This document shows, piece after piece, positions 1 to 55,940 of a stretch of 64,000 bases of DNA. The translations under genes and the position numbers were made by a program. How positions within the stretch are numbered: position 1 is the stretch's first letter; each line of letters opens with the position of its first letter. Below the pieces are notes generated by a model. That model saw nothing but the letters and a program-made list of their open reading frames with translations, was not told the DNA's origin and did no database searches. This DNA is from Emiliania huxleyi CCMP1516. Lineage: Eukaryota. Location of the stretch: positions 67,972-131,971 of the forward strand of contig NW_005201183.1 in assembly GCF_000372725.1 (NCBI RefSeq), read 5' to 3'.

Positions 1-1373
1 CCTTCTCCTTGGCCCACCGCAGCGCGGTTGTACCCTTCTCAGAGCGCAGCGTCATGTCTGCGCCCGCCCGCAGCAGGCGGAGCACCACGGCGGGATGGCC
101 GTTGGCAGCGGCGAACATCAGCGCGGTGCCGCCCTCGATGTTCTGCAGGTTGATCGCCGCACCGCCGGATCAGAGTGTCGACAATCCGCTCGTAGCCATA
201 TTGGGCGGCCTCCGTCAGCGCAGTGTTGCCACTTTCGTTTCCCTGATCGACCTCCGCGCCGTGCCGCAATGCCAGCTCGACCAGCTTCTCGTAGCCGTTC
301 ACAGCGGCGAGACCCAGCGCATAGCTGCGGCCGGCGCTGGTCAGCAATGAGACATCCGCGCCGCGCCGCAGAAGCGCCTCGGCCAGCCCTGCGTGGCCAT
401 CGACCATTGCGAGCATCAGCAGCGTCATGCCGCTCGCACGAGAGCCGTCAACAAAGGTGCACTCGAACGTCGCGTCCACCCGCCCGCCGCCGTCGAGCCA
501 CGCCAGCACCGCCGCCTCTTCGCCTCGCTCAGCCGCGTCCACGACCTCCTTTGGCACTGCCTCGCTGCCCGGCTCGGCCTTTGCGCCCTCGCCGCCCGAA
601 GCAGAGGCCGCGGCACTGGCGCCCGCCGCCGCCTCGCGTGTGGGTGCGCCGCCCGCCCCTGCGCCACCCGCCTCGGCCGATGGCGCCTTGCTGCGCGCCG
701 CCGCCACCTCGCCGAGATACGTCCTGAAAGCCTCGACGCACTCGGCGTGGCCCTTCTCCTTGGCAATCTGCAGCGCTGTCTCACCGTCCATGTCGCGCAG
801 CTTCATGTCTGCGCCCGCCCGCAGCAAGCGGAGCACCATGGCGGGATGGCCGTAGAGGGCGGCCAGCATCAGCGCGGTGCCGCCGTTGTTGGCCTGCATG
901 TTGATCTCTGCGCCGTGCCGCAGCAGCATCTCGGCCACCTGCTCGTGGCCGTTGGCGGCGGCCATCATCAGCGCGGTGATGCCTGCGCTGTCCTGCAGGT
1001 GGATCCCTGCGCCGTGCCGCAGCAGCATCTCGGCCACCTGCTCGTGCCCGTGGGCGGCGGCGGCCATCAGCGCCGTATCGCCTTCGCTGTCTCGCGCGTC
1101 CGCCTCCGCGCCGCGCTTCAGCAGTAGTTCGATAATCTCTCTGTGACCGTGTTCGGCGGCGATTAGCAGGAGCGTACAGCCACTCACACCGCGATGCACG
1201 CACGTCGCGTCAGCCCGCCCAGCCCCGCTGAGCCACAGCTGCACCTCGTCGACCTTGCCCTTCTCCGCCGCCGCCTCGATCCTTTTCGGCAGCGTGAGCG
1301 CCGCAGCAGTAGCCGCCGTTGAAGCGTGCCCGCGCCGGGACGCGGCCGAGCCAGCCTTCGTCGGGCCGGGCAT
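1..1373 (-). CDS. Ankyrin-repeat protein; frameshift near 165; runs off the window edge
   Basis: Repeated G.TAL..AA..GH..V...LL..GA motifs. Relative to the paralog at 54023 (ATC CGG CAC GGT), 2 nt are missing near 165, and ankyrin repeats continue in another frame to base 1. Start taken at the ATG of MPGPTK. Confidence 0.85.
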
Positions 1374-1527
1374 ACAGAGGGGCGGGGTGTGCAGGGCGCA
1401 CTTCTGTCCTCCCGCGCTGGCTTCGAAAAAGGGCACTTTTTCGGTGCTGGTAGCCCCCCCAAAACAGGCGCGCGCAGCGCGCCCAGGGGCGCCGCAGGCG
1501 CCCCAAGCGGCGCGGAGCGCCGCCGCA

Positions 1528-2135
1528 GGCGGCGGACAGCAGGTGCGCGAAATTAAACGCCATTTTTGGTTCCGCGGTTTTGCCACTAACATTGAAATCC
1601 GGTACAAAACGACTTAGCCGAAACAGCTGACAGACAGACAGAGAGCACACACGTTCGAGACGGGGGTGCGCCGACCGCCGTCGCGGACCCAGTAGAGCTA
1701 GATGGTCCCACATGATGCGCCCTTAGCCTCTGAGCTCGTCCTAGACATTTTAGGGAAGCGTGGGCAGACCAGAACGCGGCCACGGCGACGCTCCGAGGCT
1801 GTCAGCAGCGCTGGCGGCGATCGTGGCGACGGCGCCTCGCCGCTGCAGCGGCACAGAATCGAGGAAGTGGCGTTGGTGGCAGCATCAATGAGATATGAAG
1901 GCGGCCGTAATGCTGGTGGCGCCTTCGAGGGCGGCGGAGAGGGCGGTAGCAGCGACGGCGGTCGAGTCATGTGGCAGGGGTGCGAAGTGCAGCAGGGAGG
2001 CTTGAGTTAGCGACGCGGGGCGGTGGCGTGCCAGCAGGTAAGCGGCGGCGGCGGAGAGCAGGTGCGCGAAATAAACGCCAATCTTGAGATATCCATTTTG
2101 CACCACCTTTGGATTTCTGGTACAAATTGACTTGT
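1528..2135 (+). repeat. Two diverged ~90-nt direct repeats (about 1528-1615 and 2047-2135)
   Basis: ggcggcggaSagcaggtgcgcgaaat(t)aaacgcca ... ggtacaaa..gactt occurs twice. Confidence 0.6.
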
Positions 2136-2705
2136 GGATCTTGAAGGCACGCGCAAGAGCGCACCAGGCAAGTTGACTGAACCTCGGATCTCGCTGCCGC
2201 TAAGCGTGGCGTCGATTATCAAACGAGCGGTGACAGTAGCGGTGGCAGCGGCGGCAGCGTCGACAGGAGCACCTACTGCAGCGTGAAATGTGAGCTGGGG
2301 GGCGGGAGGCAGATGCAATAGGAGCGGGAGAGTGAGATCGTCAGCCAGCACGGCAGACCTTTACGGCGCGGCTGCGGGCGCGTTTGCAGTGACATACGAT
2401 CCATGTGGTAGCAAAGGCACGGCGGGAGTAGCGTATGCAGGCTGTGAGCGAGGGTGGCGCGTCGCGAGTGGCGGTGCAGCTAGTCGGTGGCGCGGGTGCT
2501 GGCGACCGGCAGAGAGATGCAGCCGGCGCGAGAGATGAACCCTGCGGAGAGGCGAGGTGACGGGCGAGCCGCGACGGTGGGAGAGGGCTGAGCATCGGCT
2601 TCACCGGAGGCACAGGAGCCTCGCACGCCCGACCGTGACGAGAGCGCCCTAACGCTGCTTGTTGAAGCAGCGTTAAATCTTTTTTCGTGCTCGAGCTCGT
2701 GGACT

Positions 2706-5700
2706 ATGGTGTCAGCGTCAGAGAGGGCGCGCCGGCTGCGCCCCCCCGGGGCGCCCCCGGCCGCCGCCCGCGCTCTGCAGGTGTCGTCGGGACCCTCGCC
2801 GAGACGTGAGCGAGGCGAAGAACGCGCACGTGACCTTTCCGCGGTGCCGAAGCGGCGGCGCGCAGAGAAGAAGAAGAAGCTCCCCAGCGGGCTCGCGGAG
2901 GCAGAGGCGCAAGGTGGCGGAATCAACGCTACGCCCCAGCCTTCTACACCGATCCAGCTCCTCGACGAGGGCGAGTCAACCGAGCTCGCGCTGGCGCAGC
3001 TTTCGGCAACCCGCTCCGCTCTGCCCCGCCTCCCGCCGCACCCCTCGACCGACGCGGCCGGGCGCCCCCTCGCGGCGACGGCGCCGCGCGACCATCGGCG
3101 CCAAGAGCCCCTGCAGCCGTCGGGCGGCTACCATGCCGCGCGCCCCAGCGCCCCCCCGCCAGCGCCGACGGCGCTTCAGAGCCTCGGGTCAACGGACGTC
3201 GGCTCCCCCCCCTCCATCTTCGACGTCGCTCCCGGCGTCCGAGCGGCAAACGTGCCGCCGCCGCTGGTGGCGCCCCTCGCACCGGGCTACGCCCTCCTCC
3301 CCTCCGCCCCGGCAGGCCCCCAGCCGGCGGGCGGAGAAGGCGGCGCGGGGGGCGAGGTGCCCGGAGGGCCTCTGCCGCGGGGTGCCCCCCCCTCGCTTGC
3401 GCCCCTGCGTCGCCACCGCCAAGCGTCAGAACAGGGACAAGGGCGCGGGTCTGCGCGGCCGACAGTCGCCCAGGAGCCTCTCGGGCTGATGCCGCCGCCG
3501 CCGCCGCCCCCCTTGGGCCACCAGGGAGCATGGCACCACCCCCCCCAAGGCATAGCCGCGTGCGGCGCCCCCCCGAGCTATTACTGCTCGGCCGAGGACC
3601 CGCGCCTGCCTCACGCCTCCTCCGCCGCAAGCGAGCGCGCCGTCACCGCCGAGACGGCTCGCCAGCCGCCGTCCGGGCTCGCGCCTTCCACCGCCCCCGC
3701 CACCTCCCTGCCGCTGGCAGGGGTCCCGCCCGCTCCAGGGGTGGAGGGGTCGACGGGCGGGCCCATTCCGACTGGGCTCTCGGGCGACGCGATGCAGGCG
3801 CGCCTCCCCCCCCCCCACAGTTCGTCCTCCCCCCTCCCCCCTCCCCTCCGCGAGCCTCGCCACGCCCCCATCTCCACCCTTATTCCTCACATCGCCGTCT
3901 GTGTTATGTGGCACTCGCGAACACCCCCCCACCCTCCCTCGCACCCGCTCCTGCCCCCTTCCCCCCACCCTTCTGAAGGCCCCATGTCCCCAGCCCACCT
4001 AGTTATTAGACCCAAGCCCGCCTTTGCGGTGCACCATTTCCCGAAAGGGGCCCCAAAAGTCTCATCTTTTGAGACCACTTCCATTCACACAGAGCAAGTC
4101 ACCCTACCCCCAGGGTATCAGAACCCAGCCACACCCAACCCCCCCCCCTTCCTCCTTCTCGACCCCTCTCAGGGGCTACGCTTCAGGAGCGAGGACCACC
4201 CCATCAACCCCACCTTCGTAGTCGCCGCCGTCTGGCGCTACATACCGGATGCCTCGTCCATCAAGAGCCTCGCCTTCGAGCGAATCGTCCATCAGCCATC
4301 CAGGGAGGGCCTTGGCCTCGACCTCTACGTCCCAGTGGACGGGGCCGTCGGGCACTTCGCGGACGTCGCCCGGCGCCTCTCCACCCTCTCCCACCCAGTT
4401 GAGGGCCAGGAGGGGCGCACCTTCCGAGTCTCGGTGAGCCTCATCAACCCGCGGCAGAACCGCCCGCAGCAGGGCCCTGCCCGCACCCGCTCTCTCGCGA
4501 TCGCGTTCCCTCCAGCCACCGCCTCTACGGTTGGCCTCAAGGGGGCCATATCCCAAGCCTTCCAAGCCAACGGCTTCGAGGACGCCCAGTTCCGGCCCGC
4601 CAAAAGCCCCTCCAACGAGCTCAAGCTCGCTGTGACTTGCGGGACCATCGCCTTCACCAACTACACCGGCTCTCGCGCGGCGAACTTCCACGCGATGACC
4701 CGCGAGGGAGGGATCCTCCTCCGCTTCGCTGGAGGGGGAATCGGCTCTGCCTCCATCCGCACCGCTGAGTACGGCATGGACGCCCTCACTCGGGACGAGC
4801 TAGGCCTCCGGCCCGGGTGCCTGCACCGCACCACCGAGTGCCCCGGCTGCCTCATCAACAGGCCCCGCCAGCAGCGGAGCGTCCAGCAGAGCCAAACCAG
4901 CGCCTGGGCGCTAATGAATCAGCGCCTGGACGCCAACCCTGCCCTCGGCGGACCAGGCCACCCTTCCACCCTTCCGCCCTTAGGGGAGATAGCTCAATCA
5001 CACATCTCCTCCCTCTTACAGGCGCCTAGCGATCCGCGACCTCATACCGGCCTCGGCATCCTGACCGGCTCCTTCCCCCTCCTCCCCCGGGACGCCTTTA
5101 TCCTCAGACCCAGCCACCGCGCCCCCCCCCCCAAGCGAGTGGCCCTCGGAGAGCGAGGCCCTTCTTCCCCAGGCCCTGGCCTCCCGGGGAGGCGGAGGGG
5201 GAACCCCACATGCCCCAGTGACCGCCGTCGCGGCCGGCGACGGCGAAGGCAGGGCAGTAGCCCGAACGGATGCACGATCTCCTCATGTGTTCTGTCATGC
5301 TGGAAGCCACGGTCTCTGTCCTACCCCTCTCCCCCAGTCCTAGTGACTGGCGAGTCCATGTACCTCGAGGTGGGAGGCGAGACGGGGTGCCCCCCCCCGT
5401 CTCCCGTGTATCCCCCTCTTCCGATTAAACAACCCACGGCGTTCTATCTCCCATCGCCTCGCGCATGCCTGCCCCCCAAAAGTATCCACTACAGCGAGTG
5501 CTTCGACTCCACTCTGGGGTTTCCAGGGGAGGGTCCCACTCTTGTCTTCCTTTCCAACAACATCCGAGGAGGACTCACGGGCAACGCCTGGTGGGACGCC
5601 ATCTCCGCCGCACGAGGCGAGAAGGCTGACATCATCGGGTTCCAAGAAATCAACATCCAAAAGGACGACCCCCGCCTTGGCTCCCTCGCCACGTCAGCCC

Positions 5701-6497
5701 TCAACCTGGGATACACCGCATACTTCGCTCCTATACCCAAGGGCGGGACGAGGGGCGGCACTGCCATCCTCGTCAAGACCAGCCTTCAAATCTCCAAAAC
5801 GACTTTCAATCATATGTCGAAAGGCGGAATATCGTGGGTAAACCTCGCCTTCAGCGACGGCCTCAAACTAAAAGTAGCCAATGTCTACGCTCCACACACA
5901 AACAGGAAGGCATTCTTCACCCAGCTCAAAAGGTACGTCACCAAAAATACCGTTCTCATGGGCGATTTTAATTGCGTCCCCAACAAAGATCTTGACCTCC
6001 GCCGCACCTCGCGCGCCAACTACCCCAATGACGGGGCCGACACCCTCGAGGAAATTACCTCGCGCTGCGGATTAATCGACGAGATCCGAATCCAGCTGGG
6101 CGCAGGTTTTGCGTACACCCACATCCAAAAAGTAATCCACCACCCTCCAGCCCACGCAACCCACCGCCCAGTGCGCGAAGGAGGCGCAGGCGTCCTGCAC
6201 TTTCGCGCCCACCTCGAGGCCTTCCGAGCCAAGTGGATTCTCATGTACCTAGAGCCGAGAAAGGCGATGTGGAAGCTCATCTTCGACGAATGGCTCCAGC
6301 TCCCCAGCCGAGGGACGCTCCTCTCCCCTCTCACTAAGAAAGAAAAGAGAGCAATACTATCGAGACTTCCCCAGTCAGCCTCTGCCTTCCGCGACGCCCT
6401 CAAGGCCTTTTGGAGGCTTCGCATCAGCCAACACGAAAAGGTCCTCGGCCATAAGGATCCCGACTCCCTTCGGGCACTTCCCCTTTTTCGTAACTAG
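2706..6497 (+). CDS. LINE polyprotein: Pro-rich/ORF1-like region, APE endonuclease (from about 5538), joined directly to the post-RT region
   Basis: SNNIRG, GFQE, GGTAILV, NVYAP, MGDFNC motifs followed by PVREGGAG...FRAKW. No RID/SDH motifs and no RT motifs. Confidence 0.8.
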   Translation: MVSASERARRLRPPGAPPAAARALQVSSGPSPRRERGEERARDLSAVPKRRRAEKKKKLPSGLAEAEAQGGGINATPQPSTPIQLLDEGESTELALAQLSATRSALPRLPPHPSTDAAGRPLAATAPRDHRRQEPLQPSGGYHAARPSAPPPAPTALQSLGSTDVGSPPSIFDVAPGVRAANVPPPLVAPLAPGYALLPSAPAGPQPAGGEGGAGGEVPGGPLPRGAPPSLAPLRRHRQASEQGQGRGSARPTVAQEPLGLMPPPPPPPLGHQGAWHHPPQGIAACGAPPSYYCSAEDPRLPHASSAASERAVTAETARQPPSGLAPSTAPATSLPLAGVPPAPGVEGSTGGPIPTGLSGDAMQARLPPPHSSSSPLPPPLREPRHAPISTLIPHIAVCVMWHSRTPPHPPSHPLLPPSPHPSEGPMSPAHLVIRPKPAFAVHHFPKGAPKVSSFETTSIHTEQVTLPPGYQNPATPNPPPFLLLDPSQGLRFRSEDHPINPTFVVAAVWRYIPDASSIKSLAFERIVHQPSREGLGLDLYVPVDGAVGHFADVARRLSTLSHPVEGQEGRTFRVSVSLINPRQNRPQQGPARTRSLAIAFPPATASTVGLKGAISQAFQANGFEDAQFRPAKSPSNELKLAVTCGTIAFTNYTGSRAANFHAMTREGGILLRFAGGGIGSASIRTAEYGMDALTRDELGLRPGCLHRTTECPGCLINRPRQQRSVQQSQTSAWALMNQRLDANPALGGPGHPSTLPPLGEIAQSHISSLLQAPSDPRPHTGLGILTGSFPLLPRDAFILRPSHRAPPPKRVALGERGPSSPGPGLPGRRRGNPTCPSDRRRGRRRRRQGSSPNGCTISSCVLSCWKPRSLSYPSPPVLVTGESMYLEVGGETGCPPPSPVYPPLPIKQPTAFYLPSPRACLPPKSIHYSECFDSTLGFPGEGPTLVFLSNNIRGGLTGNAWWDAISAARGEKADIIGFQEINIQKDDPRLGSLATSALNLGYTAYFAPIPKGGTRGGTAILVKTSLQISKTTFNHMSKGGISWVNLAFSDGLKLKVANVYAPHTNRKAFFTQLKRYVTKNTVLMGDFNCVPNKDLDLRRTSRANYPNDGADTLEEITSRCGLIDEIRIQLGAGFAYTHIQKVIHHPPAHATHRPVREGGAGVLHFRAHLEAFRAKWILMYLEPRKAMWKLIFDEWLQLPSRGTLLSPLTKKEKRAILSRLPQSASAFRDALKAFWRLRISQHEKVLGHKDPDSLRALPLFRN

Positions 6498-6878
6498 CTG
6501 AGGGGCTCGCTAAACGCTCGCCGAGCTCCATGCTGTGCAACACCACCTCCTCACTAATCGTCAGGGGCGCGGAGAGCGCAGTGCACTGCGGTGAGGCTGC
6601 GCCGCGGGGGCTCGCCCCCTGCACCGCGCTCAGAGCGGCGTAGGGGAGAGGGCGGTCGGTGGCGGCGGCGGCGAGGCGCGAGGCGGTGGCGGCGGTGGTG
6701 CGGGCGGCGGGATGACAGGGGAGGCGGCGGGATTGACAGGGGAGGCGGCGGCCACGAGCGGAGCGGCGCGAGAAGGGGGGGGGGGCGGCGGCGAGGCGCC
6801 GGTGAGCGAGGCGCCCGCGCCATCAGAGGGACGCGCCGCTGCGAGATGGAGGGCGGCGGTGACGGAGGCGAGGCGCGA

Positions 6879-6929
<51 letters not shown>

Positions 6930-7303
6930 AACGGCGGCACCGAGTCTCGGTGAGCGGCGGCGGGAGGAGGAGCAGCGGCGGCGCTCGCTCGCTGTTGACG
7001 GGAGCGCTTTTGAGCCTGGGAGCCCATGCCACTGCGACCGGCGTGCCCGGGAACGGAGATCGCGCGCGCGCCGCCACTCACGACGCGCGCGCGATCTTCG
7101 CGGAGTCGGGTCCCCAGAGGGAAGCGGTCTTCTCGGCCGACGTCCAGCGGCGCGCAAGGAAGCAGGCGCAGCGGAGGCGGCCTAGCACCGGCTCGGCGCC
7201 GGGCGGTTGCGCTGCCCGCGAGCCGCGTCCTGAGCCTCGGCAGCGCGCTGCGCGGCGCGGCGCTCGCGCTGCTGCGGTGCCGAGAGCGGCATGATGGATC
7301 GCC
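6498..7303. other. About 0.8-kb GC-rich insertion interrupting the LINE ORF
   Basis: Abrupt change to GGC-rich low-complexity DNA between PLFRN* and the resumed LINE frame; possible 6-nt duplication agctga at 6496-6501 and 7304-7309. Confidence 0.6.
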
Positions 7304-8759
7304 AGCTGAAGCTCGAGACTCCTCGGGTCCGCGAGTTCTGGGGGTCACGGGGATAAACGGCGGACGACGCGAGGCCCTTATATCTTTAGATGCTTTCTTC
7401 AAAGTCTTGACCAAAGGCGTCGCCTCCGCAGAGGAGGAATGGCACCCCCTTGGATTCTCCACGCTGGGGAGCCTCTTCAACCAGCTCGACGGTACTCCTC
7501 TCAGCTCCGAGCAGCTCAAAGCCGAACTTGTGGCGCGCGCCCCCGCCCTGAACGCCAAAGAACGGAGGTCGAGAGCCAAACGGCTCCTCAAGTACCAAGC
7601 CAAGATCCCCCTGAACATCAAAGCCTTTTTAGCCAGACCGCGCCCCCCCTTCTCCGCGGACGACCATGTCCTCTTTGAAGACGACCAAGGATACCTGGTC
7701 AACGGCCGGTTCACCAGCCCACACACCCTCTACGAGGAGCGCGTCGACGCCAGCGGGTGGCCGTGGACATACTCAACTCCTCACGACCTCTCTGCATGGA
7801 GCCAATCCGACATCGACCAGATTGAGCGCTGCGCCGTATGGGGTCACCCCAGCGCCTATTACCGTCCCGTGATGGGACGGCTAGCTGACACCTTCCCACT
7901 TGACTGGGGTTGGAGATGGGGTGACTCTGATGAGTGCCACCACCTCTCCGAACTCACTATCAAACGCCTCACCAAAGAATTCACGCACCTTCTCACCAAA
8001 GGCACCAAGAGGGCCTCCGCCCCTCCAAACGCCGAGACCGTCTGGGAACAACGCCTCGCAGGAAAACTCGCCTTTCCCATTCCGTGGAAGGAAATATGGA
8101 AGTCTAAGGGAACTTTCCTCACCACGCCAAAAGACGAGAATACTTGGTGGAAGCTGCTCCACCGAGCTCTACAGACCCGATCGAGGGATAGCACACTCAC
8201 CATCCAGTCGTGCCGCCTGTGCGGAAGCGATAAGGAAACCATGCTACATCTCCTCACTTGCCTGAGGGTCCGAAAAGTACAGGACGCCCTCGCGCCGTTA
8301 CTCCAAGCTGTTGGAGTAAGCGTCACCGACACATACGCCACATGGCTCTTTGGGCTCTGCCCGAGGGGGAAGCTCCTGCGCGAAGCCCCCAGGGCACTGA
8401 TTCGCATCTTTTGGCGAGTAGTCTACCGCCACATGGTCCGTAAAGAGATTGACCGAGTTCAGTTCGTGACGGAACTCGTCGTCAAAGACATTGCTCATAC
8501 CTTCATGACTCGCATTCTCCACACTCAAATGGAGCGCCAAAGGTTCAATCTCAAAAGGGTGGAAGCCCAAAACAAAGACAGGCCCAATGACTACATCACC
8601 CACTTACCAAGATCACTTGCTGAGCGATACTCTGACATCGGAGTCCTCGACTTGCCCACTGGGTACCTCGAGATCCATGACGGAGTGATTGACTTCCTCA
8701 AGGCCCAAGGGGTATGGTCAGACTTCAACTCCCCCGGAAGGGCGGGAGGAACGCAGTAG
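7304..8759 (+). CDS. LINE ORF2 C-terminal part with zf-RVT-type region
   Basis: WKEIWKS...WWKLLHRALQT...CRLCGSDKETMLHLLTC. Confidence 0.85.
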
Positions 8760-9382
8760 ATCCCATTTGAAGTCGGGCGCAGAACCGACACTGAGGGCGG
8801 GCGCAGAACCGTCTCCTTCACCCCAAAAAAAAAAGAAATTGTCGAAAAGGCTCTCCGTCCACCACGCAGGGCGCAGCACCTGCAAAAGAAATCCCTGTAG
8901 GGAAGCAGGGATAGCCGTTGAGGAGAAAGGGCGTAATAGATCATTCCTGATAGCCCCGGTATCCGAAGCCTCTCGAGCTTGCTTGAGAGGTCGGCCTCCA
9001 CCTCGCAAAATAACCCCTCCGTCCACGTGGCAATCTCCCGCGTGCCGAACCGGCGCGAGAGGGAGTATCCGCGGGTCGGGCGGGGGGGCCCCTCCCTCCT
9101 GGATGATGATTCTAGCACTTCCCTCCATAAGATAAGGCCACCTCGAATGTGCATAGAGGTGGTCATTGAGAGGGGAGTCCTAGAGACTGAGGGAGTTGGA
9201 GGTTATTTTGTCTGTCTGTCTGTTGAAGCAGCGTTAGGGCGCTACCAGCACCGAATGGGTACCCTCCCCGGCACTTTGGCGAAAAATGAACTCGAGGCGG
9301 GGTGGACGCGAGACAGAAGACGACGACACGCTCGTCGAGCGACACACAGACACACAGTGTGTGAGTGAGTGACGCGTATTCT

Positions 9383-9469
9383 TGATACGAAACCACGACG
9401 ACACACACCAGTCGACTCGCATCGGTTGCCTCCATGAACGGCGGAGCTATTCTCGCGTCCACACCACAC
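9383..9469 (+). repeat. Dispersed repeat; inverted copy at 19584-19696
   Basis: About 45-nt block gttgcctccatgaacggcggagctattctcgcgtccacaccacac plus tgatacgaaaccacgac are present as reverse complement at the second site. Confidence 0.85.
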
Positions 9470-9579
9470 ACACACACACACACACAGACACACACAGCTC
9501 ACAAGAAACTCGGCGAGCGGAAAAGAAAAACGCGCTGACCAACTCGGCGAAGTAAAACTTGGTCAAATGGGGGAGCGCG

Positions 9580-9735
9580 TCCCATGTAACCAAAATATGG
9601 TGTGGCGGTCGACTGCAGCAGCTGGTATCCCATGTAACCAAAATATGGTGTCGCGGTCGACTGCAGCAGCTGCGATCCCTGCAGGACAACCAGAATATGG
9701 TGTCGACTGCAGCAGCTCCCCGTCCCTGCAGGACA
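9580..9735 (+). repeat. 48-nt minisatellite, about 3 degenerate units
   Basis: cccatgtaaccaaaatatggtgt.gcggtcgactgcagcagct repeated. Confidence 0.85.
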
Positions 9736-9890
9736 ACCCTACGTTGACGACTCGGTCAAGCATCTCGCGGGTGGGCTGGTCCGTGGGTCTCAGCAGCGCT
9801 CAGCGTTCCCGAGTGCGGTCGGCGGTGGGAACCGCTGTGTCTGGCCGCGATCAGCGCTCCGCCGTGCTGGCTCGTCGGCACGCGAGAGCG

Positions 9891-11213
9891 ATGGAGGCAC
9901 GGCTGAACCTTTTGGCGGAGCAGCTCGAGAGGGAGGAGGGCGAGGCGGGAGATGTGAACGTGTATGGGGTCGCGCTGCTGCAGTCCATCGTGCGGCCAAA
10001 GCTGAGGACGAGGGTCGCGTGGCTCGCCGGCGCTCTCCTGCTCGCGCTACTTGAGGTGCTCTCGCTGCAAGCAATCGCGTTCAGCACCGGCTACAAGATG
10101 TGCGTCTACGATGACGAGTGCCCGTTGGGCACCGCCTGCGTGCGCGACTCCTCCAGCAGTCACGCCTTCTTCTGCGCCGACTGCAGAGAAGTTCAACACG
10201 TGAGCACCACCGGCGAGCTGGGCCAGCCAGAGTGGGCTCGGCTCGTCGCGCGGCTGATCGGCACGGGTCGTAAGGGAGCGATGTCAACGTTCACCCCGGC
10301 ACGCACAAACGACCGCTGGCCAGTGGCGGCGAACTCGAGTGAGTACTGCTCGAACTTCCTCGCCTCGGAGTTCGTGTCGGCGTGGAGAGGGGGGCGGTAC
10401 TCCGACTTTGAAAAGTGCCTTCACGTGCAGGAGGCGCTGCGCCGCTACGGCATCCTCGACGCGCTGGTGACGATGGTCGCGCTCTTCCTCGTGTGCCTAT
10501 CCATCTCGGCGGACCGCAAGCAGCAGCTGATGAACCGCCACCTGCGCGAGACGCTGCTGCCGCCACCGTGGCGAAGCTGGCGCGCGTTCGTTTTGCGAGT
10601 GATAGAGGGCTGCCTCGACGCGCAACTCCCAGGGGTGTGCTTTGCGCTCATTCTGCTGATCACCGAGGCCGACAGCATGCAAGCGTCATCGACCCTGCTG
10701 AATGGCGTCGCCGTGGTATTCATCCTCGTCATCGACGATGAGCTGCCAAAGGTCGTGCTCTCAGCCGTCGACAAGGATGCCGTCGACCAGTTCGCCGCCG
10801 CAGCCGGCCATTTCGAGCTCCTCCTCATCATCAAACGGCAGAGCCTGGCGCATGGGAGCGTCAGCTTTGCCGCGCTACTCGGGATGTTTATGGTATGCCT
10901 GCACCTGCCCTGCGACGACTTGGTCATGGCCGCGTTTGGAATCTCGACGCTCCTGCCCTTTGCGACCCGGATCGCGGAGGAGATCTGCGGCGTCCAGCTT
11001 CGCGCCACCCGATCCGCGCTGGCAGTGTCGGAAGACGAGGGGCGCTTCTCGATGGCCCATCCTCTGCGCGGCAGCGGGATCGCTGGAGCCGTCTGCTGGG
11101 CTCTGCTGAAGGGGCTGTTCGATGGCCTGCTCGCGAGCCTGTGCGTGGTGGGGGCTGCTCGAATCGCCTCGGAGACGTACCTGGTGCTCTTGAACCCCAG
11201 TGATCGGATTTAG
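9891..11213 (+). CDS. Intronless multi-pass membrane protein with Cys-rich loop, function unknown
   Basis: About 440-aa frame from MEARLNLL with several hydrophobic helices, a CVYDDECPLGTAC loop and an LLNGVAVVFILVIDD segment. Confidence 0.75.
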   Translation: MEARLNLLAEQLEREEGEAGDVNVYGVALLQSIVRPKLRTRVAWLAGALLLALLEVLSLQAIAFSTGYKMCVYDDECPLGTACVRDSSSSHAFFCADCREVQHVSTTGELGQPEWARLVARLIGTGRKGAMSTFTPARTNDRWPVAANSSEYCSNFLASEFVSAWRGGRYSDFEKCLHVQEALRRYGILDALVTMVALFLVCLSISADRKQQLMNRHLRETLLPPPWRSWRAFVLRVIEGCLDAQLPGVCFALILLITEADSMQASSTLLNGVAVVFILVIDDELPKVVLSAVDKDAVDQFAAAAGHFELLLIIKRQSLAHGSVSFAALLGMFMVCLHLPCDDLVMAAFGISTLLPFATRIAEEICGVQLRATRSALAVSEDEGRFSMAHPLRGSGIAGAVCWALLKGLFDGLLASLCVVGAARIASETYLVLLNPSDRI

Positions 11214-11873
11214 AATGAGTATAGACCGCGGCCGCGTCGGTTTTTTGCTTTATAGAAGACTCTTGTGTGTGTGTGTGTGTATCTCTGTACCGAGATTGCT
11301 CGCAGGTACAGACAGGAAGTACAGGTAGCCTTACTAGCGGGGTATACCTTACACGTCTCTCCCCAGGTGACCAGAGCCCCCCCCCCCCCCCGCCCCTTCT
11401 CTCTCTCGCTAGTACACATGGAAATTGGAATCGAGCTGGCAGCTCCCGTTTCGTTTACGTTTTGCTGCGAGAAGATGCGATATTTGTGCGGCGCTGCGGG
11501 AGAGAGAAACGGGCTGCGAGAGAAGCAAGCCAAGCGTGAATATAACTCCGCGGACCCCCGCGCGAGGCCCCGAGCCCCCGACGCGACTCGACGTGTCAGC
11601 AGGTGGGGGCAGAGAGAGAGGCCAGAGCAACCACCCCGAGCACCCGCGCGCACCGAGTACAAGCGCGGGGCCAGAAGCCCCACCGGAGGGGAGCGGGAGG
11701 TAGAAACAGAAAGGCCGCACACGGAGAACACTGACACGACGCGGGGGGGGAGCCTGCTCTCCTCTGCGGTAGAGGCGGAGAAACGCGCACAGAGGCCAAG
11801 ACAGAGCGGGGAGGGAGAGGCGGGCCACCTCAAACTCGTGCGCGTCCTCCAATCGCGACATCCGCTGAGGCGG

Positions 11874-14800
11874 TCATCTCTCCGGCCCCCTCGTCGGCGG
11901 TCGAATCTCCAGCAGCGAGCGCAGGTTGCCAGGCAGCAACTCCTTCCCCGCCTCGAGTAGACGTGTCCGGGCGGAGGCTGGGCTCTCGTCGGGCGCAAAC
12001 ACCTCCGCCACAAAGGACATGAAACGCTGCTGGTACTCCCCGGCGGGTGCGGCCGAGATGCCCTGCGGCTTGTCGCCCTTGACGTACGTCTTGAGGCACC
12101 GCTCGCCAACCTTTTCGCACGTCCACGCCTGCAGCACGTCGATGACTCCGAGGAGCATCACCCCCCCTCCGTGCTGCAGCACCGTCTCCTCGGCGCCCTT
12201 GGGCTGGCCGCTGATGGCGGCGGCGGGCGGCGGCGAGTCAAAGACGCCGAGGAGCAGAGAGTAGTCCATCAGGTTCAAGTCACGTAGGAACGCGGTGTCC
12301 GCCTCGAGCCGCGCGATCAGCTTGGCGCACTGCGCCGCGGGAAGCTTGATCGGGATCTTCTCGCAGCCGTCGAGGCTGGCGCGGACGCGGCGGAGGCCGT
12401 CGCGACGCAGGTCGTTGTCCTTGAGGACCTGCGAGCGACGGGGCGGAGTGCTGGGTCGAGGGAGGCGCGCGGGTCGAGGCCCTCAGGGAGGGTTGTGTGG
12501 GGGGGGGGGGGGGGGGGGAACCCAATTGGCCGGGGCTTTTCCCAAAGGGGGGGGGGGGGGGGGGGGGGGTCCCGACCCCCCCAGCAGCAGAGCGCTGCTG
12601 CTGGGGGGGGGTCCCGACCCCCCCAGCAGCAGAGCGCTGCTGCTGGGGGGGGGGGTCGGCCATGGGCTTAGGTGTGCAGGGGGGGTACCGAGCAGTGTGC
12701 GGCCGCTCTACGTCTGGGGGGGCGACCCCCCCATCTTTGTTTACCGATGCGTCCTAGAATGCAAAAACGCATTCTAGGACGCACTTTTCATCTCAAAGAT
12801 ACCATGTGTCTCGGGTACACAGGGCATTCTAGGATGCGACGGCTGTCCTGGAGATAGCCGCGCCGTGTCTTTNNNNNNNNNNNNNNNNNNNNNNNNNNNN
12901 NNNNNNNNNNNNNNNNNNNNNNNNNNNNNNNNNNNNNNNNNNNNNNNNNNNNNNNNNNNNNNNNNNNNNNNNGGGGGGGTGGACCGACTGGCCGGGCTTG
13001 CCCGTGCGGTTGACCCACGAGCCCTTGAGGTCGTACCGCACTGCGGGAGAGACGTCGCCGTGCAGGTGGAAGGCGGAGCGGAGCACCACAAAGTGGATGG
13101 TGCGCCCGTAGAGGTACATCGAGAACTGGCCGAGGAAGCGGTTGATGTAGGAGGCGGGCTGGTCGTGAAAGTGGCGCGCAAAGGAGGGCGCGAGCTTGCG
13201 CAAGGCCGCCGCCTCCTCCGAAGAGAGCGTCTTGACGACGAGCTGCCCGTCCTGGGAGGGGAAGAGGAACGCGCCCGAGGCGCCTCCCTTGAGGCCGCCG
13301 CCGGCGTGCTCGATCGACTCGATCGACAGCTGCAGCCTCTCGAAGTCGACTCCGGCGCCGTCCCGCATCGCGCCAAACTCGCGCGGCGCCGTGGCGACGA
13401 AGCGGACGCGCGGGCGCGGGCCGAGCACGCGCGTCATCAGCCCCCCCAGCCGCGAGTTCGTCGTCTTGAACGAGGAGAGCGAGGCAAACTGCGCGCCGTC
13501 GCGCGGGGCGAAGGTGCGGCTCACCTGTGGGCGAGCAACCTGTCAGCCAAGCAGGCCAGGAAACGCAGATGCAGTGGGCAGTGAAGACGGCCGGGGGGCG
13601 CGAGAGAAGTCGAGAAGGCAAGAGGGCGAGAGGTCGAGCAGGCAAGAGGGAGAGAGGGCGAGAAGGCAAGAGGGAGAGAGGGCGAGAAGGCAAGAGGGAG
13701 AGAGGGCGAGAAGGCAAGAGGGCGAGAGGGCGAGAACGGCGCTCACCGTCTGCCTGGCGCTGTGGAGGTGCGGCACCGCCGAGGGGAGGTAGAGCACGAG
13801 CAGCGCCCCCACCAGCAGCGCGTCCAGCGCGTGGGCGTCCCACCTGGCATGCGACACGCGCCCCCGCTGAGGGGAGGGGCTCTCTCTCCTGCGCCGTCAA
13901 GGAGGGGCCGCCTCACCCGCCCAGCGTGCAGTGCGGCTCCTCCCCTCCCCCCGCAGCCGCGCTGAAGGCGGCGACGAGGCCGAGGGCGGCCGCCTGGCTG
14001 CCGAGGCGTATCGCAGCCTCGGGCGTGTCGAGGAGGCGCCGCCAGATGGCGCCGCGGGACCCGGCGGCGTGCGACGAGGTGATGGCGAGCGCGAAGGAGA
14101 GCAGGTGCAGGATCGGGAGCAGGGCGGTGATCCAAGTGCACGGGTCGTGCCACTGGGCGGCGACCGCGTCGGCGTGCTCGACCTGCTCCTGCTGCTCGCG
14201 GAACGAGTCGAGAGACGCCTCCTGCGCGACGGTCATCGCGAAGTCCCACAGCTGCTCCGCGCGCTCGATCTCCTCCCTGTGCCGCTCGTACTCGTCGGCG
14301 CTGATCCGCTCGGCGAGCGCCGCGCCCTTGGCGGTGATGGCCACGACCTTGCCGTCCGTGGTGATGTCAGACCAGCGGCCGTAGTACGCCTAATCTCGGG
14401 TAATCTCGGGTAATCTCGGGTAATCTCGGGTAATGTCGGCCCAGCGGCCGTAGTACGCCTCGCTCATGATTGCGTACGCCCACTCGCCGAACTCGGCCGT
14501 CTCCTCCGCGTCCAGCTTGACCAGCCGGCGGCGGCTGTGCCGCCCGACGGTCAGCCGCACCTTCTCGTCCTCGGAGGCGTACGAGTACGTGGAGTCGTCG
14601 CCGCCAAAGAGCCAGCTGGTCGCAGCAGAGAGCGGGTCGTCCGCCACGGCGGGCTTGTGCGGCCGGAGGCGCGCGGTGTAGCACGCTGCGGACGGGCACG
14701 TTAGCATGGCCCGCGGCAGCGGCGGCCACCCCGCACCAATCCCTCGCGGCCCGCTCAGCTGGCGGGCGAGCAACAGCCAGCAGATCGACACCACCTGGAC

Positions 14801-17800
14801 GACCGTCAGGACCTCGCGGAAACGCGACGAGCCGCCGCCGCCGCCGCCCGCCCCCCCCTCCGGGCCCGCCTCTGCCGCGGCCGACGCGCGCACTCCCGCC
14901 GGCACCGGCGCCGGGCCGCCTCCTCCGCGCGCCGTCGCCTCGCCCTCCTCGGTGTCGCGCTTGGCGTACCTAATCTCGGGCAATCTCGGGTAATCTCGGG
15001 TCATCTCGGGTCATCTCGCCCTCCTCCGTGTCGCGCTTGGCGTACCTGGCTCCGCACCCCTCCTCCGCGAGCAGCTCCAGCGGCGGCTCCTCCGACGCGG
15101 GCTCCAGCATCACCACGAGCGGGGCGCCTACCCGCAGACCCGCATCCGCGTGAGCCGACGCCTGCGCGCTCCTCGAGCCTCCTCGAGGCGGCGGCGAGGC
15201 GGCGGCCGTCGCGAGGCAGCGCTTCGTCCGCCGCGCCGCACGTCGCTGCGACGCCCTTTCGTATGCAATGCAGCACCTCGTCGCGGAGCGCCTCGTTGCC
15301 CGTGGGGTCCGTGTCGTCGACCTAATCTCGGGTAATCTCGGGTAATCTCGGGTAATCTCGCCTCGTTGCCCGTGGGGTCCGTGTCGTCGACCTCGAACCC
15401 GCCCGCCTCGCCCTCCCCCTCCTCCTCGCCCTCCCCCTCCCCCTCCTCCTCCCACCCCCGCCCGGCCAGCGCCGTGTCGGGCTCGCCGCCGCGCTTGACC
15501 GCTCCAGCGCCTGCGTCGGCCCCACCGCCGGCCGCCACGCCGCCGTAGCCGAGCAGCAGCCGCCAAGGCACGGGCGCGAAGAGGCCGGCGCGCTGCTGCG
15601 ACGCGAGGAAGGCCATCGTCCACAGTCCCTGCATCGAGAGCATCACCTATCGAGGTCTCGGGTGGTCAGCACCCTGTTGAATCGCCCACAGTCCCTGCAT
15701 CGAGAGCATCACCTATCGAGGTCTCGGGTGGTCAGCACCCCCCTGCTGACCTTAAGGGCGGAGGCCGGAAGGCCGTCGTCCACAGGCCCTGCACCGAGAG
15801 CGTCACACCTGCATGAGGCCGATCCAGTTGGCATCGTCCCCCGCGTGCTCCGGGTCGCTCCACCGCCACGTGGCGAGCGGCTTGCACGCGCGCACAAGCC
15901 ACTTGCAGTCGGCGACGTTGAGCGAGCCTTGGGCGGTCACGGGAGGGGGGGGGCCAGGGGGTGGCGTCGGCCCGGCTGCTGCGGGCAGCGCTGCCGGCGG
16001 GAGAGTGGGCGCGTGGGCGCGTGGGCGTGTGGGCGTGTGGCGTGTGTGGCGGGCGTGTGGCGGGTGTGGCGGGCGTGTGGGCGTGTGGCAGGTGTGGGGT
16101 GTGGCGGGTGTGGCGGGTGTGGGTGTGGAGAGGGTGGGCGTGTGGCAGGTGTGGGGTGTGGCGGGTGTGGCGGGCGTGTGGCGGGCGTGTGGCGGGTGTG
16201 GCGGGTGTGTGGCGGGTGTGGCGGGCGTGGTTCACCCAGCTGGAACATGAGGTAGTAGAGGGGGATCCAGTAGAGCCCGTAGTGGTGGAAGATCGAGTCG
16301 ACGTTCCGCGCGATGGCCTGCTCGCGCGCGCGCATCGCGCGTGTCGACGCGCCGTTCATCGTCCACCCGAGGACGACCACCAGCAGCAGCGAGGTCAGCA
16401 GGCTGAGGAACGCCCAAAAGTAGGCCGCCAAGACCCACGTGCCGCTCGCCAGCGCCGAGTCGTCCTCGTCCGACCAGTCGCCTGAGTAAGAGCTCCTTCA
16501 CCGCTAACCATGAATCCTTACTTCGGAGCCCTCCTCGTCCGACCAGTCGCCGGAGCGCGGCCAGCACTCGATCGGCAGCGTGTGGATCGGCCGCGGCACC
16601 GTGGCCGTCGCAAAGCAAAACTTTGACGCGGCGGTCGCGTTCGCGCCGCCGCTGCCGCCGCCGCTTCTGACGCCGCCGCTGCCGCAGCCCTCCGCGCCGA
16701 AGAGCCCGGCGGTCCACACCCGCTCCTCGCGAGTCGCGTGCACCTTGGGTTCGGGTACCGTGGGGTAGGGGAGGGTGGGTTCGGGTACTGTGGGGATGGG
16801 GGAGGGCGAGTCGCGTGCACCTTGGCGGCGGCGAGGGCGGCGCAGACGAAGCGCGACGTGTCAGACTGGTTGAGAGAACACGACGTCTCCATCAGCCTAC
16901 GCGCACGGCCGGCCCACTCTAGCGGCCTGCTCGACGAGCCGGCGCGGTGTGCCTCGCCCCTCGCGCCCGCGCACGGACAGGTTGGCGGGCGGGAGCTCCG
17001 CCTTCCACGTGTGCAGGGTTAGGGTCAGGGTTAGGGTTAGGGCTAGGGTTAGGGTTAGGGTCAGGGCTAGGGCTAGGGCTAGGGCTAGGGCTAGGGCTAG
17101 TGTTAGTGTTAGTGTTACGGTTAGTGTTAGTGTTAGGGTTAGTGTTAGTGTTAGGGTTAGGGTTAGTGTTGGGGCTAGGATTAGGGTTAGGGTTAGGGTT
17201 AGGGTTAGAGTTGCCTTCCACGTGTGCAGGCAAAAGCCGGCCTCGATGGCAAGCAGCTCGTCCCGAGCCTACAGACCCTCCTCCGGGCAAGGGTCACGCA
17301 AAGGCTCTGACGGAGGCCAGCTCTCGCCGGCGGCTGAAGTCGGCGCACCGGGTGGTGCCGCAGCCAAGGGACGGACGAGTCGAGCGGCTGCGACGCCATC
17401 CGCGTCCTGTCGAGCTCGTCTGCCGCGCCGGCAGGGTCGAGGAGGAGGCGGAAGCCATAGGAGAGGGCCGCGCTGAGGCCTGGAGAGGGAGGCGGCGAGA
17501 GACACTGCGGGAGGGGGAGGGGGGGGGGCGTTGGGGTGTCGCGAGACAGACGACAGCTTGTAGCGGCACCGTACGCGCAGACGCGGGAGCCGAAGGCGAG
17601 CCTGTTCACGGCTGCAGGTGTGAAGAGACGCCGTTCACAGCGTGAGACCGCAGACGCGGGAGCCGAAGGCGAGCCAGAGCGAGAAGGCGGCAGCTCCTCC
17701 CCAGACGAGAAGGTGGTAGAGGCGGCGGGCGCGCGCGTTGTCAGTGAAGGGGTCGCGCCTTGGGTTTGGGTGCCGTGGAGTAGGCAAGGGTGGGTTCGGG

Positions 17801-31808: not shown

Positions 31809-33974
31809 ACCACCGCCACGAGCTCCACCGCCGCCGCCGCTGCCGCCGCCGACGGCCTCGCATGGCTACGACATATGCGACCGTCAGAACCAGCGGTGCC
31901 AGGTAGAGGCGCGCGCTCGCCTCGAAGCCGCCGCCGCGTCGGTCCTCCGGCACTCGGCGGCAGAGGCGGCGGCGCGGGCGCGCTTCGAGACGGCAGCTGC
32001 GGCTGCAGCGGCGGGCGGTGCAGCGCTCGAGGCGGGCGCGGCACGCCGCTCTCCGCGGGGGAGCAGCCGGCGGCGCGCCGACGACACCGTCTTTGCCTCG
32101 GCCTCCGCCTCCTTCGCCCCGTGCGGGGCTTCGGGAATGCGCATCCCCGACCCGGCCCCGGACCTCCATCCCTTCGAGGCGGCGCGGCAGGACCTTGCCC
32201 CCTCGGCCGCCGCCTGCGCCGCGTGGGTGGCGGAGGCGCGGCGCGGCCGCATCGAGGCGGAGGCGGAGCGGCAGGAGGCGGAGGCGGCGGCGGCGGCGGC
32301 GAGGCTGGAGGCGGCCGAGGGGAGGCGGCGGGCGGAGGCGGCGGCCGAGGCGGTGGCGGAGGCGGCGGAGCAGGTGGCGGAGGCGCGTGCGGCGGCGGCA
32401 GAGGCGACGGCGAGGGCGGACGCCGCCGAGTCGCGCAGAGACGAGGGGTGTGAACGGCGTCTCTTCACACCCACTGCTGTGAACAGGCGGACGCCGCCGA
32501 GTCGCGCTCGCTTCGTGCCGAGGCGGCGCTGCAGTCCCTGGCGCTGCAGCCGGCCGCGCCGCAGTCGACCGCGCCGGAGCGTTCGGGCGGCGGCTCTCTC
32601 CTGCCCGCCGCGCTCGAGCGACGCGATGGGCCGGCCGACACTGGCGGGGGCGGGAGCGAGGGAGGCGGCGGCGGCGGCGGCGGCGGTGAGTCTGGAGCCC
32701 CCGGAGCGGGCCCCGGCGGCGCGGCGGCGGCAGCCTGCGGCGCAGTCGACGAGGCGGCGCTGCTCCGGCGGGCGGGCGCGGCGGAGGAGGCGGCAGAGGA
32801 GGCGTCGGCCGCCGCCGCCGCGGCTTCCGCGGAGGCGCGTTTGCCTCGCGCCGCTTGCCGGCGGCCCTTCCCGCCCTGCCCCGCATCCCCGCCCCTCCCG
32901 CCCTGCTCCCGCATCCCCGCCCTTCCCGCCCTGCTCCCGCATCCCCGCCCTTCCCACCCTGCTCCCGCCCTGCAGGTGCTCGCGCTGCGGAGGAGGCTCG
33001 AGGCGGCCAGCCTCGAGGCGGTGGAGGAAGCAGCACGCGCCGACCGAGCGACCGAGGCGCCTCATATCTCCCCATATCTCCCCATATCTCCCCATGTCTC
33101 CCGCCTAGCGCCGACCGAGCGACCGAGGCGCCTCTCGCCGGCTGCTGTCGCTCGTGGGCCGTGGGCCTCAGAAGCGAGCTCTTGCTTTAACTGCTAGGCG
33201 CTTGCTAACGCTAACCCTAACCCTAACCCTAACCCTAACCCTAACCCTAACCCTAACCCTAACCCTAACCCTAACCCTAACCCTAACCCTAACCCTAACC
33301 CTAACCCTAACCCTAACCCTAACCCTAACCCTAACCCTAACCCTAACCCTAAGCCTAACCCTAGGTCATCAGAAGCGAGCTCTCGCTGACACGTTTAGGC
33401 GCTTCGCCGGCTGCTCGCCACGGCGGGCTTGGCCGGCCGGTGGGGCGGGGAGGCGGGGGCGGGAGGCGGCGCGGAGCAGGACGGTCGCGGGCCCGCGTGG
33501 GTAGATGCCGCCGAGGCGGCCCTCCAGTGCTGGGCGGAGGGCGGGCGGGAGGCGGCGGCGGCGGCGGCCGGGTCGGGCCCTGCAGAAGGGGCGGCGGCAA
33601 AGCTTCCTCGCGCACCGGAGGAGGCGCCGCGCGCGGCGGAGGCGGCGGAGGCGCGGCTCCCAGCGCGAGGGACAGCCGGCACGCGCGAGGAGGCGGCAGC
33701 CCGGCGCGAGCTCGAGCGTCGCCGCGGTGCGGGCATCCGCCGCACTCCGCCCCTTCCCTTCCGACGTAGCACCCCTGCATCGCCAGGCGCGAACCGCGAC
33801 GCCGTCGAGCGGCGCGCAGCCACGGAAGCCGACCCGTCCGGCGGCGGGAGGCGCCGAGGAGCAGCCATGGCGGCGGACCATAACGATAGAGTCATGCGCG
33901 CAGTCAGCGCGTATGCTGTGCGGAGCCACCTGGCGCTGCCGACCGCCCCTGCGGCGGCGCTCTGCCGGAGATGA
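31570..33974 (+). CDS. Ala/Glu-rich coiled-coil protein of unknown function, multi-exon
   Basis: Frames join after removing introns 32416-32486, about 32836-32976 and 33057-33398. Confidence 0.55.
32416..32486 (+). mobile_element. Family A copy 3
   Basis: gcggacgccgccgagtcgcgc duplicated around ggtgtgaacggcgtctcttcacacccactgctgtgaaCAG. Confidence 0.8.
33205..33364 (+). repeat. Interstitial telomeric (CCCTAA)n inside an intron
   Basis: Nearly pure array flanked by the duplicate tcagaagcgagctctYgct. Confidence 0.95.
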
Positions 33975-53542: not shown

Positions 53543-54022
53543 GGGGAGAGGGGGTACGTACAAATCAAAAGATGGTCGTTCCCACTGGCGTTAAAGCGGA
53601 GGGCCGCCACGACTGTTGTTGGCTCTGCCCACTGCCGCCGCGCTGGCTTGGATGCTGCCCCAAAGGCGGCTGGACTCGCTTGCTTGCCCTATCTATGTGC
53701 AATGTGTGGGCAACGCGGCAACGCGCGCACGCTTGCCAGCCGTTTCACGCGTTTGTCGTTGAGTCTTTGATAAGGTGTTCTCGTTTTCTTGTAAGGGGTA
53801 AGTGACAGAGTGTGGACCAAATCGGGACGGCGCCCCTCATCAGCCACCCCAAAGCGAGGCGACGCGTCTCGTCATCCGCCCCAAAATCCGGTCCTGCCAG
53901 TTTCCCAGCGCTAAAAAGAAAATCCGGCGGCTACGTCCGCGGAGCCTCCTCCGTCGACGCGCGGCGGCGGCGACGTCCCTGCAAGCATTCGGAAGGCCGC
54001 CAAGGATGGCCAATCGGGAGCG

Positions 54023-55940
54023 GTGCTGGCGTGGCTCGACGACGGCGGGCGGGTCGACGAGACGTTCGAGTACACCTTTGATGGCGGCTCGTGCTCGAGC
54101 GGCATGACGCTGCTGATGGTCGCAATGTCCAATGGCCACGCGGAGCTGGCCGAGGCGCTTCTGCGGCGCGGTGCGGATGTCTCATTGCTGACTAGCGCCG
54201 GCAGCTACTATGCGCTGGGTCTCGCCGCCGTGAACGGCCACAAGAAGCTGGTCGAGCTGGCATTGCGGCACGGCGCGGAGGTCAATCTGCAAAACAAGCT
54301 TGGCGTCACTGCGCTGATGGAGGCCGCCTACCAAGGCTACGAGCGGATTGTCGACACTCTGATCCGGCACGGTGCGGCGATCAACCTGCAGAGCAGTCTC
54401 GGCGGCACCGCGCTGATGGGGGCCGCTATCCACAACCATCCCGCCGTCGTGCTTCGCGTGCTGCGGGCGGGCGCTGACATGACGCTGCGCTCAAGCGGCG
54501 GCAGGACGGCGCTGCAGATTGCCAAGGAGAAGGGCCACACCGAGTGCTACGAGGCCGTCAGGACGTATCTCGGGGAGGTGACGGCAGCTCGGATCAAGGC
54601 GCTGTCGGCCGAGGCGGGCGGCGCAGGGGCGGGCGGCGCACCCGCAGGCGAGGCGGCGGCGGGCGCCAGTGCTGCGGCCTCTGCTTCGAGCGGCGAGGGC
54701 GCGGGGGCCACGCCGGGCAGCGAGGCAGTGCCAAAGGAGGTCGTGCTAGCGGCTGAGCGAGGCGACGAGACGCCGGTGCTGGCGTGGCTCGACGGCGGCG
54801 GGCGGGTCGACGTTCGAGTACACCTTTAATGACGGCTCGTGTGCGAGCGGCATGACGCTGCTGATGGTCGCAATGGCCAAAGGCCACGAGGAGCTAGCCG
54901 AGGCGCTTCTGCGGCGCGGTGCAGATATCTCGTTGCAGAAGAGCGATGGTGGCACCGCGCTGGTTCTCGCCGCCGGGAACGGCCGCGAGAAGCTGGTCGA
55001 GCTGGCGTTGCGGCACGGCGCGGAGATCGACCAGAAGTACAGCAACGGCAACACTGCGCTGATGCAGGCCGCCGCGAAAGGCCGCGAGCGGGTTGTCGAC
55101 ACGCTGGTCCGGCACGGCGCGCAGATCAACCTGCAGGCCAACGACGGCTTCACAGCACTGATTCTCGCCGCCGCCTTCGGCTACCCCGCCGTCGTGCGTC
55201 AGCTGCTGCGGGCGGGCGCTGACATGACGCTGTGCACTGAGAAGGGTACAACCGCGCTGCAGTACGCCAAGCAACAGGGCCTCGCCGAGTGCGTGCGCGC
55301 CCTCGAGGAGCATGCGGCGGCCAAGGCGGCGGCCGAGAAGGCGGCGAATGAGGCGGCGTGGGCTGCGGGGGCGGCGGAGAGGGCGGCGCAGAGGGCGGCG
55401 GAGGAGAAGGAGGCGGCGCGGCACGCCGAGGAGCTACTGGCGGAGGTCGAGGCGGAGAAACGCGCCAAGGGCAAGAAGGGCAAGAAGAAGAAGAAGGGCG
55501 GCGGGGCGGGCGCGGCTGGGCTGTCGCAGGAGTCCGAGTCGCCGTCGGAGGCAGCCGAGGCCGCAAAGAAGGCCGAGGAGGAGAAAATGATGAGGCTTCT
55601 CGAGAAGTGTCACGAGGAGAGGATCCGGCTCGGCATCACGGCGGAGAGCCAGGCAGCGGCGTCGGCAGCGGTGGCCGAGGCGGTGCGCTTGGACGCGGAG
55701 GCGGACGAGGCGGAGGAGGAGGCAGAGGCGGACAAGGCGGAGGAGGTGGTGGCCGTGGCGGCGCTAGCGGCTGCCGAGGCGGCGCTGGCGGCGGCCGAGG
55801 CGGCGCTGGATGAGGCGAGGGCCGCTGCAGACGCGAGGCGTGCTGCTGCAGAGGCGAGGGGTGCCGCTGCGGTCGCGTCGATGGCAAGGGCGGTTGCAGC
55901 CAGGATGGCGGCGGATGCGGCCCAGGAGCGCTCTACATAG
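54023..55940 (+). pseudogene. Ankyrin-repeat paralog, apparently 5'-truncated, frameshift near 54810
   Basis: gtcgacgttcgag versus gtcgacgagacgttcgag (5-nt loss); shares its linker and repeats with 1-1373; C-terminal coiled coil with a KKGKKKKK tract. Confidence 0.8.

Follow-up and report, generated by a model that had tools for sequence, protein, structure and literature searches.

At one locus in the 64,000-nt stretch of Emiliania huxleyi DNA analysed here (the window), a LINE lies inside what would otherwise be a perfect hairpin, which raises the question of whether its family aims at such structures or entered this one by ordinary insertion. Our reading, to which we assign a probability of roughly 0.8, is that an RT-less copy of an L1-group LINE sits in the hairpin of a multi-copy repeat and arrived there by ordinary TPRT without a strict target sequence.

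The hairpin and its host repeat

Script comparison of the two ends of the LINE revealed an exact direct repeat of 16 nt flanking it (Table 1), and this duplication was the sole exact repeat of at least 8 nt between positions 2600-2720 and 9150-9300. When the element and one TSD copy were deleted in silico, a perfect 18-bp stem with a 4-nt loop was rebuilt, as the preliminary description had stated. The chance expectation is about 2e-5 for the 16-mer and about 5e-5 for an 18-bp stem in 64 kb, and no second occurrence of the hairpin arm was found in the 64-kb window with up to three mismatches allowed. Because the tail of the element overlaps the right duplication by 3 nt, sharing its first three letters, the TSD length is given as 13-16 bp. 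The TSD begins at the hairpin loop, which places the first nick at the edge of that loop; just 0.06% of the window falls in loops whose perfect stems are 15 bp or longer. Taken with the clean tail and the existence of high-identity relatives, the exact 16-bp duplication fits a real insertion.

Empty counterparts of the site were recovered in three of four runs, where a contig joined position 2657 to position 9226 with seven other letters between; these empty host copies carried the same 15-bp arms as the window around seven different loop letters. Depth at the empty joint was 7-11 times that of the contig at 9540 in three of four runs, contig depth being a rough guide only and not a copy number, and the joint contigs extended 36-41 letters on their shorter side. 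These contigs exceeded the reference depth and ran for 36 letters or more even on their shorter side; the hairpin is therefore a component of a multi-copy repeat whose arms are 15 bp long and whose loop varies. This result bears out the earlier suggestion that the palindrome might lie within another repeat. The exact 18-bp/4-nt form was absent among the 15 of 18 joints listed, and the empty palindrome occurred in none of the 42 loci fetched.

As to the nature of the host repeat, the hairpin was rejected as a canonical Helitron1 3′ end, no CTRR being present within 32 nt on either strand. A structured RNA gene (snRNA, tRNA or 5S) as the target was likewise looked for in positions 1-14000, and no Rfam match overlapped the flanks in a scan that yielded 15 hits with E no greater than 1 and whose sensitivity was lowered since the element splits the site. 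In viral contigs, neither the hairpin arm nor the LINE 3′ end had a match, and the LINE protein had no relative.

Table 1. Coordinates of the host repeat, the LINE copy and its nested insert (positions of the window).
Feature	Position	Strand	Remarks
Host repeat, minimum left extent	2622..2657	.	joint contigs
Host hairpin, left arm	2643..2660	.	2643-2657 is the 15-bp arm common to empty host copies
TSD, left copy	2660..2675	+	16 bp; 13 bp if the tail takes the 3-nt overlap
L1-group LINE copy, non-autonomous	2676..9220	+	6545 bp; RT deleted, Helitron-like insert
Long reading frame	2706..6493	+	Pro-rich N-terminus, unassigned middle, cut-short APE, post-RT region; stop within insert
APE endonuclease, Pfam Exo_endo_phos	about 5607-6026	+	truncated in the window copy
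In-frame deletion junction	6146..6150	+	690 codons missing (P0003 residues 416-1105)
Non-autonomous Helitron-like element	6494..7390	-	897 bp; TC start, CTAG end, A|T site, no TSD
Frame downstream of the insert (C-terminal)	7391..8759	+	zinc knuckle zf-RVT, about 8079-8258
3′ UTR	8760..9209	+	last ~115 nt foldable as a long stem-loop
GTCT/TCTG tail	9210..9223	+	three units; last 3 nt common with the target
TSD, right copy	9221..9236	+	exact repeat search
Host hairpin, right arm	9226..9243	.	rebuilt empty site
Host repeat, minimum right extent	9237..9261	.	joint contigs

Structure and affinities of the LINE

Comparison with P0003, a database protein from an intact relative that carries both an APE (Exo_endo_phos) and an RT (RVT_1, E 5.6e-31), showed 94% and 100% identity on the two sides of the in-frame deletion. 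The missing stretch takes with it the last catalytic motifs of the APE, SRID and SDH, along with the entire RT, and a Pfam search found no RT in either frame of the window copy. Contigs from other copies end or begin at position 6148. Loss of the RT through splicing was considered and rejected, because the contig break at 6148 leaves AG on the retained side. With the RT lost, the APE truncated and an 897-bp insert present, the window copy cannot move itself. These defects had been missed in the preliminary description.

An intact copy would measure about 7.7 kb and, as judged from P0126, hold one long frame; the N-terminal region and pol share one frame in both the window and P0126. L1-group elements typically have a separate ORF1 bearing RRM or zinc knuckles, although this is not strict; here the N-terminal 960 residues gave no Pfam hit. 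The zinc knuckle near the C terminus scored 27.3 bits (E 6e-6), slightly below the curated cut-off of 27.5, and the hairpin loop of the endonuclease has 20 residues, which is unusually long. Folding of the 3′ stem-loop was not significant against shuffles (z -1.23), and a comparison of five sequences did not show it to be conserved: 1 of 37 pairs had a two-sided change, and four were disrupted in one or more of the sequences. The earlier statement that the element ends in (TCTG)n and not in poly-A stands as far as the composition goes; the tail itself is short, with just three TCTG units at 9211-9222 and 2-3 units in other copies.

The insert within the LINE has a TC start, a CTRR end, an A|T site, no TSD and many copies, its depth being 24-111 times that of the reference contig. 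These are the marks described for non-autonomous Helitron1 elements (PMC3627910, PMC10288648), and the insert carries them at the level of sequence. It differs from Helitron1 in its weak 3′ hairpin, the sub-terminal 3′ folds reaching -5.5 to -8.2 kcal/mol, and its 897 bp are too short for a Rep-helicase gene. Contigs in all four runs skip it (joint of 6492 to 7390), other LINE copies are without it, and its excision restores the P0003 frame. Since the depth of the insert-free joint equals that of the adjoining LINE body in runs X1 and X6, the Helitron-like element probably entered the LINE later.

Among solved structures, the RT of the family best matched human L1 ORF2p (E 1.5e-46), R2 giving 2e-13. 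A search with the RT gave 611 proteins with E no higher than 1e-20; the 120 listed were nearly all unnamed and included a protein of 49% identity labelled Chrysotila/Pleurochrysis. The sequence has a G+C content of 66%, and relatives occur in marine samples; together with the labelled protein, this points to a haptophyte host. In a quick RT tree of 47 rows (5 of 52 were skipped) with a midpoint root and unverified Tx1 references, the window family formed its own group (support 100) on a long branch, which joined L1-like rows (SH-aLRT 99) and lay outside the group of animal sequences that includes zebrafish BAC82613, a protein that we take to be Tx1-type. The bacterial genome collection contributed 25 loci, all of them distant LINE contamination of 22-41% identity, which served solely as rows in the tree.

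An APE before the RT, an L1-type RT (in P0003), a C-terminal zinc knuckle and a TSD of variable length are all L1-group features. By these predicted traits we class the family as a single-frame L1-group LINE on its own branch outside the sampled animal group. The earlier designation as an APE element, made with an allusion to Tx1, is retained in its first part, the element being an APE-type L1-group LINE by its Exo_endo_phos domain and L1 ORF2p match. With L1-clade LINEs such as human L1 and those of green algae, the family shares the order of APE, RT and C-terminal zinc knuckle as well as the variable TSD, but it differs in its single frame, TCTG tail, long branch of its own and 20-residue endonuclease loop. 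The tail is not unusual for an algal L1, because 8 of 15 green-algal L1 families end in simple repeats other than poly(A) (PMC3747384, Table 3). Members of the Tx1 group (Tx1L, Keno, Kibi, Koshi, crocodilian Tx1-Mar) likewise have an L1-group protein, and the window copy lies within a repeat just as Tx1L does within Tx1D (PMC4494074, where the Tx1 group is described as one of animals); the window family, in contrast, has no shared target across nine junctions and is not nested among the sampled animal sequences. No description of the family was seen among the papers that the literature searches listed.

Target specificity of the family

Other copies were collected from metagenomes with 19 nt of the LINE 3′ end as the query. 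The scan returned 17 loci, eight of which were rejected as chance matches, the bases that followed being unrelated to the element; nine were the element, and two of these shared one site, leaving eight distinct 3′ junctions. None of the eight ran on into the palindrome, and all diverged after 2-3 tail units; at L011, for instance, identity was 100% over 186 nt before the flank diverged. With the window copy counted, one of nine junctions lies at the hairpin. The eight flanks matched the window target at 4-8 of 15 nt, which is the level of random sequence (mean 6.3, 95th percentile 8). Two other copies are flanked on both sides, and their rebuilt sites gave best perfect stems of 6 and 4 bp; across the three copies so flanked, the window copy included, the TSDs varied in sequence and in length (13-16 bp in the window, 12 and 8 bp). 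Depth at 8948, in the 3′ region, was 15-30 times that of the contig at 9540 in all four runs, compared with 1-3.4 times for the body.

A published criterion calls a family target-specific when more than 20% of its flanks fall at one target type (PMC4494074). By that criterion the family would not be target-specific on this sample, in which 0 of 8 corresponds to a 95% upper bound of 31%, above the 20% mark. The eight junctions come from environmental contigs and from short, derivative or contig-cut copies, with no second full-length flanked copy among them, and four of the eight contigs have adapter-like ends and may share one study. The preliminary description had proposed sequence- or cruciform-specific targeting, to be checked by collecting copies through the 3′ end and comparing their flanks, unrelated flanks being named as the outcome that would speak against it. 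All eight distinct junctions have unrelated flanks, and the proposal is not borne out.

Ordinary untargeted insertion is therefore likely, since the eight other family sites are unrelated to the hairpin. The steps would be a cut in the bottom strand by the family's APE at the edge of the loop, priming of synthesis through base pairing between the TCTG tail and 1-3 nt of the target, and a second nick 13-16 nt away that produced the duplication; overlaps between tail and target are also found at L001 and L015.

Several other explanations were weighed against this one. The endonuclease might cut many sites with a soft preference for extruded hairpin loops, so that hairpin repeats become hot spots. 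The start of the duplication at the loop, the rarity of such loops in the window and a loop-edge nick as a cruciform model predicts would all suit this idea, as would the 20-residue endonuclease loop, given that L1-type endonucleases are described as reading DNA structure, with the hairpin loop of the protein as a determinant of selectivity in L1 and Tx1L (PMC1950540). We nevertheless consider it unlikely, because none of the eight flanks resembles the arm, the two other sites that could be rebuilt form the short stems given above, and one striking case would be expected in a large scan. A narrower version, in which the long-looped endonuclease of autonomous copies prefers to nick extruded loops by DNA structure and not by sequence, with short and derivative copies scattering, seems to us quite improbable.

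Strict Tx1-like specificity for the palindrome within the host repeat, possibly limited to full-length copies, has a precedent in the Tx1 of Xenopus and the crocodilian Tx1 families, which target non-autonomous DNA transposons (PMC4494074), and the host here is indeed multi-copy. It is very improbable, however, given that none of the eight other junctions lies in that palindrome, that LINE 3′ ends appear commoner than the hairpin, that the four copies of a single long derivative each have a flank of their own, and that the family falls outside the sampled animal group. Finally, the perfect 18-bp/4-nt form could be a local product of template switching or repair at or before insertion, or an assembly artefact: the empty joint in three of four runs has 15-bp arms and a different loop, and neither junction of the window copy is bridged by any of the contigs listed. 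We give this hardly any credence, for the duplication, tail and relatives agree with a genuine insertion, assemblies built from short words break at palindromes, and the joints listed were 15 of 18; moreover, it would change the length of the stem and not the verdict on targeting. The locus is a real feature with a likely ordinary cause, namely a defective copy of a new L1-group family in the hairpin of a repeat.

Derivative and exonic copies

Four metagenomic loci (L005, L008, L016 and L017) share a second deletion, which joins about position 4134 of the window to about 8519, and have four different 3′ flanks; an internally deleted derivative has therefore likely been amplified. A smaller deletion carried by three of these four loci was also present in run X4. 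In its internal deletion the derivative resembles the bipartite LINEs RIME, NARTc and HAL1. It differs in that the parent is an L1-group element and in that its 5′ end lies outside the loci seen; the clades named for ORF-less bipartite LINEs in PMC5786205 are RTE, Ingi, Vingi and R2 only.

Two short complete copies (L001 and L015) lie in coding sequence, and each is predicted to be removable as an exact GC-AG intron; at L015, the match to the PEP carboxylase profile continues on both sides of the insert. In Emiliania huxleyi, GC-AG is reported to be the main type of splice junction (PMC4028052), and non-LTR introners have been recorded at about 5% (PMC12130899; review, PMC11282704).

The locus holds nested mobile elements, with a repeat, a LINE and a Helitron-like insert, and it documents a TCTG-tailed L1-group family in an alga. 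If the endonuclease did read hairpins, this would be of interest for engineered insertion, but the data argue against it. The short exonic copies, which may be removable as exact GC-AG introns, are the better lead.

Repeats and genes around the window LINE

Contig depth was very high at window 2300-2543 and 9376-9600, indicating that the locus is flanked by further repeats. Near window 2480, CTAG is followed by T; judging from this motif, another Helitron-like element, besides the one nested in the LINE, may terminate there. The end of the LINE 3′ UTR (window 9091-9202) could form a long stem-loop, although its folding was not significant compared with that of shuffled sequences; it is bracketed by motifs that we take to be box C-like and box D-like, and had no match in Rfam. 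Within the 3′ UTR, a stretch of 34 nt (window 8903-8936) also occurs in another repeat, and in several of the sequencing runs compared, loose ends occurred on both of its sides. Many 10-11-nt tandem arrays were also found in the window; such arrays are intron features of coccolithophores.

Other features of the window
Feature	Window position	Remark
Ankyrin-repeat gene	39-1592	
Inverted relative of this gene	54008-55294	74-88% identical, ~53 kb away
Perfect 15-bp hairpin	12561-12653	microRNA matches all below threshold
Perfect 15-bp hairpin	12748-12783	
Interstitial TTAGGG-type array	17015-17212	
Interstitial TTAGGG-type array	33205-33363	

LINE sequences at other loci

Four metagenome loci (L005, L008, L016, and L017) carried a second internally deleted form of the family, in which window ~4134 is joined to ~8519 and the junction lies at a short shared motif. 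The 3′ flanks differed in all four, and the derivative is likely an amplified non-autonomous L1-group element, known here without its 5′ end. Among contigs assigned to bacterial genome bins, 25 (L018-L042) encoded eukaryote-type LINE reverse transcriptases and are likely contamination.

Short LINE copies as candidate introns

Both short complete copies, in metagenome loci L001 (1178-1255) and L015 (416-590), lie in coding sequence. The L015 copy interrupts a PEP carboxylase identified by Pfam; the L001 coding sequence had no Pfam match and presumably contains metallophosphoesterase-like motifs. Both target-site duplications (TSDs) contain CAG|GC, and therefore the insert plus one TSD is predicted to be removable as an exact GC-AG intron of 66 nt (L001) or 167 nt (L015). 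By chance, a CAG|GC-type site on either strand is expected in 18% of random 12-mers and 10% of random 8-mers. Such sites in TSDs would be selected through the survival of copies in exons.
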